From positions 64,001 through 128,000 of the forward strand of contig CAVTCR010000050.1 in the NCBI GenBank assembly GCA_963733195.1: 64,000 nt of DNA, in the 5' to 3' direction. The DNA is from an uncultured delta proteobacterium. Lineage in GTDB: Bacteria; Desulfobacterota; Binatia; Bin18. Of the stretch, positions 30,464 through 42,790 are shown one piece after another (position 1 is the stretch's first letter; each line of letters starts with the position of its first letter). The notes beneath the pieces were generated by a model that saw only the letters and a program-made list of their open reading frames with translations, was not told where the DNA came from and ran no database searches. Made by a program: the position numbers and the translations under genes.

Positions 30464-30492
30464 TTGCACTTCTAGTTCCTTTGGGCTATAAG
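30464..30492 (+). promoter_or_regulatory. sigma70-type promoter of DUF1302 paralog 1; overlaps the putative crRNA target (30479-30490)
   Basis: TTGCAC-17 bp-TATAAG. Confidence 0.7.
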
Positions 30493-30778
30493 GCGCAACA
30501 CTGGAAATAGTCTTCAATTAGGGGTTCTGCCGTTGTGTAACTCGCACCGGCATCGTTTTGGGGCAAGCGGCGAATTCGGCGGATATTAACGCAAAGTAAA
30601 GATAGGTTCCGGCTCGTAGCCAAACTATAGCGCCAGATACCGTCTTCTACTTTACCGAGAAAGGGGGAGAAAACACTCATAAATTATTGATAATACTGCG
30701 TCTTTTCGCTTAAAAGCAGGAAGTGGATTCGTCCATTTCTCAGCACCGGAAGTGACTTTTTTGGGGTAAGGAGGGCAT

Positions 30779-33035
30779 ATGCAGATAAGAACAAAACGCA
30801 GGATACATTTGATAGTTTTGAGCGCCCTGCTCAGTATCGCTACCCTGCTTGGGGGAGCGACGGCGTCGTGGGCATCAACGCGCATTGGCAACGCGGAACT
30901 GCAGATGTGGTACCGCATGCGACATACGTTCCACTCCGCTGGGGGCGATAATATTAACTGGGTGCAGTGGCGCAACGAGGTCTATTTATGGTTCATTTAC
31001 GATAAATTCGTTGATAACGGCAAGATTTTAGGGCAGGATAAGCTCGAAATTCCTTTTGTCGAGAACGCCACCCTCAATTTACGCTATCGCTTCCGGGCCG
31101 ATCCGGTGTGGACGATTCGCGATGCATACAAGAAGCGCTACGACAAAGACGAACGCCAGAGTTATCTGTTTCCTGAGAACGGCTTTCGTGACGCTTTCTT
31201 AGATCTGGACTTTGGGCAGGTGGGGCGCGGGAAGCTCTCGACCCGTATTGGTTACCAACAGATCGTGTGGGGAGAATCGGACCTGTTTCGCTCGATTGAT
31301 GTGATCAACCCGCTGCGCATTGACCAAAACCAGGGTGCAGGTGAGAAGTTCGATGAATTTCGCTCGCCAATTTTCGCATTCAAGGCCAATTACCACATCG
31401 GTAACGTCGGCTCGTGGTTCTCGAACGTGTACTTCGAACCGTTCTACACCCCAGGGTTTCGTACTCCCCTTTCCAACTTGATCAATGATGGCACTGCCCT
31501 TCGCGCTCCATTTCATATCAAGGGTTGTTTAGACGACAACAATAACTTGGTAGAGTACAGTGCATCGGCCTGTTCGTTCCGGCGCGCCGATGGGTCACGG
31601 GTGTTCGTGCCGTGGAATCCCAGTTGGAAGGGACGCGCGGCCTCTCGTCATCCGTGGGCGTTTATTAGCCGGTCGCTGAATCCCCGCGGTGGCACCCCAG
31701 ACTATGGCAATCAAAACAATCCAGCGGTGTCCCCAGATATTGCGGGCTACGCGCTCAGACCTACGTCCCTAATGCCTACAAAGGGCAGTGCAAAGGTGCG
31801 CTCAATGGCATGTGGGCAGGGTGTACCAGCGCGGCCGGGTTTCGCATCTTCGGCACCAGCATCGGCGGCTTTGACTTCTCGCTGAACTACGCCAATATTC
31901 CGCAAGGAGCTAGCGGGACATACAACATCAGCGATGTCGGCTCGCGCGCAAAGTCTATGGCGATCCGGATGTGGCGCAGCAGCTCGGACTCGCTGCTCCT
32001 GTCGGGACCTTCGAGGAAGGGTTACGCCGCTGTTTGAACGGAGCGGGAAGCCAAGGCAACGCCAGAAATGATCCATCGCAGGCAGGTGATAACAACGCCT
32101 CCACGGCTCCTGGTGGGCGCGGATCTCGAATGGCTACAACAATCCGGCCCGGTTCGGCTCGAAGGGGCATTGCCGCTGCTGGCCCAATAGGTGACGCCAA
32201 GCCGGGCAGACATGGAGCGGTACGGCGCGCCCGTAACGAACTGTTATCCTTTCAACTATTACAACACGCGCACCAACATCATTGGCTTTACCTCGACCTA
32301 CAATGACTTTGAGTACACCGGCGCGGTGTTCCGCATAGAAGAGAGCTTCAGCACCAAGGAATATGTCCGCAAACTGGCGCAGGCTTCGGGCGCAACGCGC
32401 GAACGCGAACGGTGGGGCAGGACCGAACCTCACTCCCAGCCAATTGCGAAGCTGAATGCCTTTACGGTCAACAAAGACTACCACACCTACACTGGCGTGT
32501 GGCGCTCGATGGTCGGCTTTGACTTGCTCAAATCGGTGCCGTCCTTCAAGTACATTCCCTTCCTCCACCATTCCTTCTCTGACCAGGCCTGGTTCTTCAC
32601 CGGGCAATGGTTGATGAAGAATCGGTGGAATAACGTGGCTAACCCGTTGTGCTACGTGGTCGATAACGCTGGCAATGGCGTACACCAAAGAAGAGGCGAA
32701 GAGCACTGTCACGCCAAGATGGCAAGCGACACTATGGCAACGCACAGTGTCGGAACTATCGCTGGGAGCACTTGTTCTCACTGGCGGCGGTCAACCAAGG
32801 GTTGTTCGCCAGTCGGTTGGAGACCCGCAACGCGGTGGCGCTTGAGCCCCGCTCTCAGGACATGCTGCTGTTCTCGCAGTGGTGGTGGCGCAACGTGTTG
32901 GGGTATGAGCAGATTGAACTCTCCATGGGCGTAGCCTGGTATCCAGGCAGCAGCATGAGTCAGGGCTGGAGTGGTCTCTACGCGTTTGCTGACCGCGACC
33001 AGGTGTGGTTTGAGATGACGTACTACCTCCTCTAA
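30779..33035 (+). CDS. DUF1302-like outer-membrane beta-barrel protein, paralog 1 (several frameshifts)
   Basis: Signal peptide (A-W-A), G.QQIVWGESD....DVINP, C-terminal DRDQVWFEMTYYLL; collinear with paralog 2. Confidence 0.62.
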
Positions 33036-41061: not shown

Positions 41062-41179
41062 TAACAGTAGACAGTAGACAGGATAAAGGAGTCAAGGGGA
41101 AAGGATAATGGGACTCGTAGGCTTTCCATGATGGTTACGTTGTCTCTCATCTGCTTGGCTACTGACTACTGATCTACTT

Positions 41180-42790
41180 ATGCCTTCAGCCATGCGCCCA
41201 CGCAAACGCGCGAACTGGCCAGTTATCGTGTACCGCTACTGGGTAGACCCCGAGTACAACACCTGGGAGCGTCTCCCACGCGTCATCCAACAGGAAGCAG
41301 AGGCGATGCGGGCATTGTGGAATCAGCTGGTCACTGCCTTTGTCCAACGTCAAGCTACTTATCACAACACAGTCGCGGCTCTCCCTCCCACAGCGACAAT
41401 AGAAACTGGAGAGTGTTCCCCCTCTATAGCCAACACGACAGTGAAGCCTTCACCACTCGTGCTGCGCCAGTTGCAACAAACATTTCTCCAGACAACCCAG
41501 GAGGTGAGCAAAGCTTCTTCTGTCACTTGGGCGAACAAACAGTTCATTACTACACAATTTTTTGCCGCCCTCACACGATTTTTCAAGAAACAAGGCGACC
41601 CTCCACGGCAACGAACCGGAGAGTTTCGTGAGGTTCATTTTCAGCATCGCTTCACCGAGGGCGGACTGCCGATCGAGCGGATCTTTGGCCATAGTCAGCG
41701 ACTTTGCCTTACGTCCGTTGCCCCTGACGCCTTCTCTCCTGCCCTTTCTCAGCGACAACAAAAAAGATTGGCGCGCACAACTGGGGCTTTCCAAGTCAAT
41801 GGTTGTATTGTGAAATTTCACACGATTTTGCACCGCCCACTTCCATCAGGCGCGTATCTTAAAGTGGCTGCACTGATTGGCAAGCGCATTATCCAAGAAG
41901 GTTATCACTGGAACGGTGTTGGGGGGCAGCCGACGCCTGCGCGCTGGAACTGGTCGTTGCAGCTCACGCTGGAAGTGCCTCCTCAGCCACTCCCAACCCT
42001 GTTGCCCAAGGCAACGGCAGCACTACAAATTCGCTGTGAGTTGATCGATGAGCAACATGTGAGTTTCGCTATTTTGACAGATGCCACAGGACGTGAAGAG
42101 GCCTTTTTTCTCCCCGAAACATTGCTTACCTCTTGGCAGTACAAACGCAGACTGCAAAAGCAAGCCGATCAACTGCTGGAAGTCACCAAACAGCAATTAC
42201 AAGATCTACCACTAACGGGGCAATCGCCCAGCACTCAACAGCGATTCTCCCATCTCAGAGCGGCACGCGCCCCAGGGTTGTGGCGATTATTCCAGGTATT
42301 AGAACAAGAAGGCGCATCGGATGCAGCCATACAGCTCTTACGCCACTGGGCCAGTTGCTCAACCAAGTTGCTGCGTGAAGCGCGCGGATTGGAGCAGCGC
42401 TATCTCGGTCATCGCGATTGGTTTTATCACAACCTCGCGTTGCAGCTCTGCCATCGTTATCAACAACTTGTTGTCACGGTATCAGACATAACCGCAACAT
42501 CAGCCGAGCAAGACAGCAGAATCATTGCCGCTCCTCACGAGTCGCAAATTTATCGCCAACTTGCAGCCCCAGCTCGCTTTTTATCCTTTCTGCACCAAGC
42601 AGCAGACAAGACTGGCACGACAGTGAAAGAAGATTTGCGGATTGCAACACGTCGGACATTACCGGCAGCAAAGACCACTCGTTTCCAGACCCAGTTCAGC
42701 GGGGAAAAAGCTGAAACTATAGCCCAAAGTCTATCGAAAGTAGCCAGTAGTCAGGAGTCAGTAGAGAAGGAAGTAGTCAGTAGCCAGTAG
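41180..42790 (+). CDS. nuclease-dead, C-terminally truncated Cas12m-like (type V-M/TnpB lineage) RNA-guided DNA-binding protein
   Basis: Motifs collinear with Cas12m as recalled: VYRY, LWNQLV, TWAN, LHRPLPSGA, W.LQLT, LGHRDWFYHNLA, RQLAAP. RuvC-I and RuvC-II acidic residues are replaced (AALQIRC; LVVTVSD); Zn finger and RuvC-III are absent. Confidence 0.75.
   Translation: MPSAMRPRKRANWPVIVYRYWVDPEYNTWERLPRVIQQEAEAMRALWNQLVTAFVQRQATYHNTVAALPPTATIETGECSPSIANTTVKPSPLVLRQLQQTFLQTTQEVSKASSVTWANKQFITTQFFAALTRFFKKQGDPPRQRTGEFREVHFQHRFTEGGLPIERIFGHSQRLCLTSVAPDAFSPALSQRQQKRLARTTGAFQVNGCIVKFHTILHRPLPSGAYLKVAALIGKRIIQEGYHWNGVGGQPTPARWNWSLQLTLEVPPQPLPTLLPKATAALQIRCELIDEQHVSFAILTDATGREEAFFLPETLLTSWQYKRRLQKQADQLLEVTKQQLQDLPLTGQSPSTQQRFSHLRAARAPGLWRLFQVLEQEGASDAAIQLLRHWASCSTKLLREARGLEQRYLGHRDWFYHNLALQLCHRYQQLVVTVSDITATSAEQDSRIIAAPHESQIYRQLAAPARFLSFLHQAADKTGTTVKEDLRIATRRTLPAAKTTRFQTQFSGEKAETIAQSLSKVASSQESVEKEVVSSQ
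42681..42740 (+). CRISPR. single Cas12m-type repeat (42681-42717) plus guide, embedded in the 3' end of the dCas12m-like ORF
   Basis: GTTTCCAGACCCAGTTCAGCGGGGAAAAAGCTGAAAC (37 nt): TTCAGC/GCTGAA stem and CCC/GGG pseudoknot. Followed by TATAGCCCAAAG, the reverse complement of 30479-30490. Confidence 0.7.

Follow-up and report, generated by a model that had tools for sequence, protein, structure and literature searches.

A candidate RNA-guided transcription factor of Cas12m descent beside outer-membrane-protein paralogs in uncultured Binatia

What does a Cas12-like protein do on a bacterial chromosome when its nuclease is dead and a single CRISPR repeat stands at the 3′ end of its gene? The question is raised by a stretch of 64,000 nucleotides (nt) from an uncultured member of the Binatia (the window; positions 64,001 to 128,000 of contig CAVTCR010000050.1). 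It carries two genes for DUF1302-like outer-membrane proteins (OMPs), OMP1 (30779-33035, + strand) and OMP2 (38826-41061, +), and, directly 3′ of OMP2, an open reading frame (ORF) of 536 amino acids (aa) (41180-42790, +), here called the cas gene. An earlier sequence-only reading proposed that the protein uses one guide to silence the promoter of OMP1. The observation behind that proposal was confirmed, and its interpretation is supported, with every prediction testable by computation in its favour. Our computation established the Cas12m ancestry of the protein, the loss of its nuclease motifs and zinc finger, the homology and structure of the repeat, the guide match, guide-promoter co-variation, paralog specificity, synteny and purifying selection. 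We consider it probable that a type V-M effector has been domesticated here as a chromosomal RNA-guided transcription factor, which would shut off OMP1 while OMP2 is made. Below, G denotes genomes, C contigs, L loci and g genera, and G000 is the window's own genome (6.9 Mb).

A Cas12m relative and its solo CRISPR repeat

The ORF at 41180-42790 encodes a true, C-terminally truncated Cas12m relative with a dead RuvC domain. Searched with phmmer against Protein Data Bank (PDB) chains it matches Cas12m (E=1e-11), and a profile of 24 family members matches two Cas12m proteins almost from end to end (E=8e-34 and 2e-20). PADLOC reports a match to Cas12u1 (3e-28), and Pfam and NCBIfam give none. An AlphaFold (AF2) model based on the family alignment has a mean predicted local distance difference test score (pLDDT) of 80, with residues 487-536 below 50. 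The structural comparison for which the sequence-only reading had asked agrees with the profile: the top four Foldseek matches in the PDB are all Cas12m2 or Cas12m (2.4e-18 to 5e-16), followed by dCas12f, TnpB and Cas12f, and the E-value for dCas12f is 3e-9 as against 2e-18 for Cas12m2.

The predicted loss of the RuvC catalytic residues is borne out by alignment A3, in which Q283 and T433 occupy the first two acidic positions; both positions are variable within the family of the window protein. Its conserved core ends near residue 484 (~42631), before the zinc finger and the third RuvC motif, and the helical REC insertion of array-bearing relatives is absent (alignment A3). Neither the RuvC triad (DED, HDD, NDD or similar) nor the zinc-finger TNB domain expected of a Cas12m was found in the window protein. 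Both are kept in more distant relatives, namely the array-bearing L031 and L032 and the solo-repeat L011, which have the RuvC-I Asp, the RuvC-II Glu-Asp, and the Cys/His zinc finger with the third Asp motif. Orthologues begin at the second Met (41192), and the portion of the ORF beyond the conserved core reads through the repeat and the guide. The ratio of nonsynonymous to synonymous substitution rates (dN/dS) against three orthologues is 0.06-0.13 where computable, with dS above 1 and synonymous sites near saturation; a ratio of ~0.1 argues that the cas gene is maintained.

The 37-nt element that follows (42681-42717, +) is present in a single copy in G000, and no CRISPR array accompanies the cas gene, which has one repeat only, both in the window and in the genome. 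In 33 locus rows, which comprise 23 distinct sequences, nhmmer located the repeat at the gene's 3′ end. Its last 31 nt (42687-42717) are the conserved core and are nearly invariant down to 46% protein identity (orthologues 46-74%). The single repeat described by the sequence-only reading is homologous to array repeats, but its 5′ six bases are not conserved, including the five on which a 'closing stem' had been based. In protein alignment A1 the repeat appears as a 'conserved C-terminal tail', which some orthologues read in another frame and others skip by stopping earlier; at least two protein frames are used while the DNA is nearly invariant, and the constraint therefore lies on the nucleotides. 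Real arrays of 7-9 repeats, with a period of 73-75, lie just 3′ of the cas gene in L031 and L032 (27% protein identity), and their 36-37-nt repeats match the window element base for base throughout the invariant blocks, with a common end point. The repeat holds a 6-bp hairpin that is 94% paired across 14 sequences. One pair is seen in each of the four Watson-Crick forms, and neither any of 500 shuffles nor any slid register approached this degree of pairing. The homology to array repeats and the co-variation of the hairpin together identify 42681-42717 as a solo CRISPR repeat, with the guide beginning at 42718.

Conservation past the guide is weak, extending to ~42733, and none is seen beyond ~16 nt on the guide side. 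Genus g6 (L004, L005, L009, L010, L056) has a small hairpin immediately 3′ of the 12-nt guide, within the next 15-20 nt, and a second copy in G040 keeps the pairing there with a different stem sequence, a sign that the guide RNA may have a defined 3′ end. No tracrRNA-like element was found. One locus, L023, carries the repeat and guide at 6445-6493, upstream of its OMP gene (start 6737) and not after the cas gene (9312-10715).

The statement that cas1, cas2 and an array are missing holds within the window; it does not hold for the genome, which has cas1 genes on other contigs. Two of these are intact (C14:44331-45203 and C28:60962-61816), and G000 has other CRISPR-Cas systems away from the window.

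The guide, its target promoter and their co-variation

The fixed guide (42718-42729, +) comprises 12 nt that are the exact reverse complement of 30479-30490, as the sequence-only reading had reported. The target (30479-30490, +) lies in a promoter-like element (30464-30492, +) that is preceded by an A-tract and consists of a -35-like hexamer (30464-30469), a 17-nt spacer and a -10-like hexamer (30487-30492); the target comprises the final 8 spacer nt and the leading 4 nt of the -10-like hexamer. Pairing with the guide would involve the OMP1 sense strand. At the position of the protospacer-adjacent motif (PAM) the flank on the minus strand is GCCT (30491-30494). The element stands just past a terminator-like hairpin that closes the preceding hydrolase gene, ~300 nt 5′ of the OMP1 start codon. 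The A-tract, -35-like hexamer, 17-nt spacing and -10-like hexamer are conserved 5′ of the orthologous OMP in every lineage examined, and the PAM-position flank, which overlaps the conserved -10/discriminator region, reads C-C-T or C-G-T in each of them. In genus g2, fourteen cas-less genomes (L082-L095, L109) share another, strongly conserved sequence that fits the promoter pattern but has its own spacer and does not adjoin a DUF1302 gene; the -10-like hexamer and the next three bases may be a general promoter feature of the family.

The guide 12-mer occurs three times in G000, as itself, in the OMP1 promoter and at one site on C14; the chance expectation is ~0.8 genome-wide and ~0.008 per 64 kb. 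The C14 site was considered as a second target and rejected, its flank being different and the count at chance level.

Co-variation of guide and promoter in orthologous loci, which the sequence-only reading had set beforehand as a test, was assessed by comparing, per genome, the first 12 nt after the repeat with the 700 nt upstream of every DUF1302 paralog and with promoters found by pattern. In all 11 cognate genome or contig pairs, from four lineages, the best site fell at the homologous position in the promoter, on the opposite strand from the OMP gene, and the mismatches in 12 numbered 0-2: none in G000, L014, G053 and G047; one in G048, G050, G040 and G041; and two in G042, G039 and G046. 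Contiguous seeds over the 11 pairs measure 12, 12, 12, 12, 11, 11, 10, 10, 10, 7 and 5 nt, and guides compared with the promoters of other genera have 3-5 mismatches. Lineage-specific changes are mirrored on the two sides. At guide position 12, G000 and L014 have G and G053 of the same genus has A, with the identical change in the promoter, and the orthologous promoter is the sole non-self match of the G053 guide in its genome. At positions 7-8, genus g1 has CC on both sides and genus g10 has GG on both, and genus g6 and G046 have their own matched versions. Several of these changes are compensatory. Cognate lineage pairing is the best of 24 permutations, a small sample with one representative per lineage and with kin that are not independent. 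A chance match was rejected in view of the co-variation, and a copy of the promoter in antisense in view of the end of conservation at ~16 nt on the guide side.

The target is also specific to one paralog. A well-matched site lies 5′ of the unlinked OMP paralog in nine genomes, and no site with up to two mismatches was found in any of 12 other OMP upstream regions (cas-linked or further paralogs), where ~0.05 are expected by chance per region. The claim that the guide addresses the promoter of the neighbouring, unlinked paralog thus stands as regards the cas-linked upstream regions; it fails at L014, where the guide matches the promoter of the OMP-cas operon itself. Inside the loci of other metagenome contigs, most of which are without an unlinked paralog, no target with up to one mismatch was found.

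A near-cognate site lies between OMP2 and the divergent regulator gene described below (38485-38496, +), with the same 4-nt flank, a 6-nt seed and 3 mismatches in 12; its minus-strand sequence makes up the -10 region of a promoter-like element that points towards the regulator gene. It is present in the window and in L012 of the same genus, two of the four loci checked, and in genus g1 only. To judge from its sequence, it hints at feedback.

Genomic setting and proposed mechanism

The protein collection holds 73 homologues, the named ones of which come from metagenome-assembled genomes of Candidatus Binatia or 'Deltaproteobacteria'. The cas gene, single-copy in G000, is present in 12 of 54 reference genomes of the window's family (7 of 10 genera); among 346 genomes sampled across the class, from 19 further families, it was not found. 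An OMP gene stands directly 5′ of the cas gene in 17 of the 23 loci for which 400 nt or more of upstream sequence is available (the exceptions are L007, L008, L011, L030, L031 and L032), and this OMP-cas synteny spans 7 genera. The divergent regulator keeps its position in L002, L005 and L012, and GNAT and MetE-like genes follow in many loci. No sigma-factor gene was linked at any locus examined, in a search limited to homologues of the window's neighbours and their Pfam domains.

Several relatives depart from this layout. L011 (957-2900), on a contig labelled Nitrospira, encodes a 603-aa protein of 33% identity with all RuvC motifs and the zinc finger kept; a single repeat stands 3′ of the gene, and after it come a guide-like stretch of 16 nt with another sequence and a T-run; the locus may be an intermediate stage of domestication. 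In G053 (L048, G053:C150) a second, partial cas copy has decayed but retains repeat and guide, and G040 (L056/L070, G040:C201) has a second DUF1302 gene directly followed by the solo repeat and the same guide, without a cas gene.

In the window, the two OMP genes are collinear, as the sequence-only reading had it, with 74-95% nt identity in blocks and a spacing of ~8.03-8.05 kb. Their assignment to DUF1302 rests on intact orthologues, which match the Pfam family (E=1e-11 and 9e-14) with PF06980 scores of 44.8 and 51.8 bits in L014 and L012 (cut-off 23.2), over a span of ~110 residues only. Upstream of OMP1 lies an alpha/beta-hydrolase gene (29199-30281, Pfam match), closed by the terminator-like hairpin with its T-run (30412-30438, +). 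The divergent regulator gene (35542-38379, -) encodes, according to Pfam, an OmpR-type winged helix, an AAA_16 ATPase and TPR repeats (wHTH-AAA-TPR). No terminator-like site was found between OMP2 and the cas gene, and the first one 3′ of the guide on the same strand is at 42871-42895 (+). Convergent GNAT and MetE-like genes lie beyond the cas ORF.

An insertion sequence (IS; 33069-34586, +) has inserted just 3′ of OMP1. Its inverted ends of 47 nt are 81% complementary, and it encodes a transposase of the Tn5 type (33156-34571) with DNA-binding and dimerisation domains; it is outside the proposed regulatory system. Heptamer tandem repeats flank many genes (41055-41095, 42739-42808, 43151-43182, 60589-60620 and others), including both ends of the cas ORF, whose final codons enter one. 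A 22-nt inverted repeat (42861-42882 and 43079-43100) brackets a non-coding stretch between the cas ORF and the GNAT gene, which may be a remnant of a gene for a small four-helix-bundle protein. Rfam gave no match at the gathering threshold in the cas/OMP region; elsewhere in the window it identified a c-di-GMP-I riboswitch aptamer (53584-53675, +; 70.3 bits against a gathering score of 35). Matching the region against sequencing runs returned 20 rows, each with at most 0.17 of the sampled words and two of them RNA, which provide no evidence on habitat or expression.

From this arrangement we propose that OMP2, the dead Cas12m protein, and the solo repeat with its guide would be transcribed as one unit, probably under the control of the divergent wHTH-AAA-TPR regulator. 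The protein would bind the hairpin handle derived from the repeat at the 3′ end of its own message and keep the repeat-guide piece. The short guide (~12 nt, and 10-12 in relatives) would then pair with the OMP1 promoter on its sense strand and open an R-loop that begins at the -10-like hexamer and reaches into the spacer; the R-loop would exclude RNA polymerase, so that OMP1 would be off while OMP2 is made. Expression and processing of the RNA, binding and the part played by the regulator are inferred from sequence, and repression and the paralog swap by analogy with TldR and Cas12m. A repressor is favoured because the same promoter type stands in cas-less genomes, where it presumably works without the ribonucleoprotein (RNP), because the site lies between the -35-like and -10-like hexamers, and because no sigma-factor gene is linked.

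A number of findings weigh against this proposal. Both OMP copies of the window are broken into several frames under translation table 11, OMP1 by at least two frame changes and OMP2 by many, while the five genes that neighbour them are intact and orthologues in ten related genomes are open over 700-800 aa. The system may be decaying in G000, or the assembly may be faulty at paralogous sequence; nucleotide alignment with intact orthologues (~70% identity) is too noisy to place each frameshift or to separate sequencing error from decay. Two further cas1 copies (C51:17677-18548, C73:9178-10051) and a CoA-transferase-like gene (C14:31975-33253) are also split between frames in G000, and since frame breaks thus seem to cluster in genes with several copies, they may reflect faulty assembly and not decay. 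Folding 42670-42745 as a single sequence is no better than shuffles (z=0.14), and no repeat was found 3′ of the gene in the orthologues of G045 and G030, nor at L023 in the 390 nt before the contig ends. The guide-target match stops at 12 nt without extension, and the seed is short in G039 (5 nt, 2 mismatches) and in g9 (G046; 7 nt, 2-3 mismatches); none of four g6 genomes has a perfect 12-nt target. The OMP1 promoter is a predicted one; a strict consensus scanner did not call it, because its -10-like hexamer ends in G. In genera g5 and g7 the promoter, with much of its T-rich spacer, is conserved in genomes without the cas gene, so that part of the guide-target likeness is shared conservation. 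The flank differs from the T-rich PAMs of Cas12m, for which TTN, YTN, YTTS and TTV are given in the available text of the sources (PMC10442227 among them); neither TTN nor YTN is found here, which is weak evidence, and the flank lies in a promoter segment that has reasons of its own to be conserved. At L014, finally, the targeted promoter is that of the sole OMP on 21.5 kb, with the cas gene directly after it, an arrangement that looks like autoregulation and not like a neighbour swap.

The RNP might bind as proposed and serve feedback or dosage control of the OMP family, perhaps with weak action on the regulator promoter and with autoregulation where there is a single OMP. The near-cognate site in the regulator promoter region of the window and L012, with its shared flank and 6-nt seed, points that way, as does the perfect target at L014 in a promoter that also drives the cas gene; but the former is confined to two of four loci in one genus, and the well-matched sites 5′ of unlinked paralogs in nine genomes, with none of up to two mismatches at cas-linked ones, fit a swap better, so that we regard this account as unlikely. 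Binding at the same site might also activate OMP1 or have some other polarity, for example by opening the -10 region or recruiting polymerase. RNA-guided activation by a dead Cas12 relative exists, as the accessible part of the report on dCas12f with sigma-E describes (PMC13472631). An R-loop here would expose an unpaired template strand precisely over the -10 region, and the targeted promoter of L014 drives the cas operon itself. On the other side, no sigma-factor gene is linked at the loci examined (among homologues of the window's neighbours), the same promoter type stands 5′ of DUF1302 genes in cas-less genomes, where the RNP is not needed, and the site overlaps the spacer between -35 and -10, in which bound proteins usually block polymerase. 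Activation is in our view quite unlikely.

That no RNA-DNA pairing is involved, the 12-nt likeness being due to a DNA element common to both places (a site bound by a protein, for instance, or a duplicated piece of promoter) and the repeat-like element having another role, would accord with the part of the -10-like motif held in the 12-mer and with the partial conservation of the spacer in cas-less genomes. Yet the likeness begins exactly at the last base of a repeat homologous to array repeats, in the orientation expected of a Cas12 guide, with neither a -35-like hexamer nor other conservation beyond ~16 nt on the guide side, and lineage-specific changes appear in guide and promoter together, which makes this very unlikely. 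The lost nuclease motifs, the missing array, the broken OMPs, the nearby IS and the decayed second copies in G053 could together mark a decaying type V-M remnant without present function, its match a relic or a coincidence; against a dN/dS of ~0.1 (with saturated synonymous sites), a repeat invariant at 46-74% protein identity, synteny across 7 genera and guide-promoter co-variation, we hold this to be highly improbable. An RNA-guided repressor that shuts off OMP1 while OMP2 is made is thus the reading we prefer.

Comparison with known RNA-guided systems

The closest functional precedent is TldR, the TnpB-like nuclease-dead repressors of the fliC_P- and oppF-associated clades. The accessible text on TldR describes a protein that is encoded beside one paralog and silences the other at its promoter, with a guide that overlaps the -10 region and can be 9-11 nt (10.1101/2023.11.30.569447), and in which guide and target are conserved together (10.1101/2023.11.30.569447; PMC13622181). 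As far as those texts go, TldR and the window protein are both nuclease-dead RuvC proteins, C-terminally truncated and encoded beside one paralog, and each gene carries at its 3′ end a short, fixed guide (9-16 nt) complementary to the -10 promoter region of another paralog. The combination that marks TldR as a kind, a dead nuclease, a fixed guide and a host-promoter target conserved together, is also found here. The two differ in that TldR derives from transposon-borne TnpB and has a long scaffold of the omega-RNA type and a target-adjacent motif (TAM), whereas the window protein derives from Cas12m and has a CRISPR repeat of 31-37 nt as its handle. The window protein is also larger (~480-aa core) and belongs to another phylum and another cargo, a DUF1302 OMP.

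Cas12m itself silences by binding without cutting, according to the available text of two reports (PMC10442227; PMC11013384). It is the best match of the window protein in sequence and structure, and the repeat is homologous and apparently also without a tracrRNA-like element. The window system has no array, only one repeat and one conserved self-targeting guide; its protein lacks the zinc-finger/TNB domain, the third RuvC motif and the REC insertion, with non-acidic residues at the first two RuvC positions; and its target is a host promoter and not a mobile element, with a C-C-T or C-G-T flank instead of a T-rich one. A CRISPR effector that represses the promoter of a host envelope protein through a short, partial match is also known in Francisella, where Cas9 acts with scaRNA; that Cas9 is nuclease-active and resides in a full CRISPR locus, whereas the window effector is dead, truncated and dedicated. 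The dCas12f-sigmaE system, as the accessible part of its report describes it, recruits a linked extracytoplasmic function (ECF) sigma factor, activates and needs no promoter (PMC13472631). It shares with the window an exapted dead type V effector, the lack of a functional array, host outer-membrane transport genes and guides of more than 10 nt (PMC13472631, same part). The differences are that no sigma gene is linked to the window locus, the neighbours being hydrolase, OMP, wHTH-AAA-TPR, GNAT and MetE-like genes, that the window site lies inside a promoter-like element which also occurs without the protein, and that the effector is of another Cas12 lineage.

Already known, then, is a dead TnpB or Cas12 relative that serves with a fixed guide as a transcription factor. 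New are the type V-M lineage, the solo-repeat form, the absent zinc finger, the cargo and the phylum. The available text of Altae-Tran et al. (PMC10691335) speaks of 'gradual inactivation' within subtype V-M and names other exapted clades (sigma, SpoIIE, flagellin, DppD and RHH), this one not among them. No description of a solo-repeat regulator derived from Cas12m was found in the searched literature, including the accessible portions of PMC10691335, whose supplementary tables may list the clade, PMC12669027 and PMC13472631; nor did the searched literature hold an RNA-guided system linked to DUF1302.

On balance we lean towards a third, independent origin of natural RNA-guided transcription factors, in which a V-M effector that shed its array, nuclease and zinc finger would have become a one-repeat, one-guide repressor choosing between OMP paralogs in an uncultured Binatia family, with a ~12-nt guide, a flank that is not T-rich, and intermediates in existence (L011, L031 and L032). 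If so, CRISPR effectors themselves, and not only their transposon ancestors, have been recycled into dedicated host regulators. The graded series from array-bearing Cas12m to solo-repeat regulator makes the path of domestication testable, and a compact core of ~480 aa, without zinc finger or nuclease, may use a 31-nt handle and a guide of 10-12 nt to bind DNA at a flank that is not T-rich. Such a system would also offer the first regulatory handle on DUF1302 proteins, and the logic of linked paralog on and unlinked paralog off, which TldR applies to flagellin and OppA, would have arisen again for OMPs in a distant, uncultured phylum.

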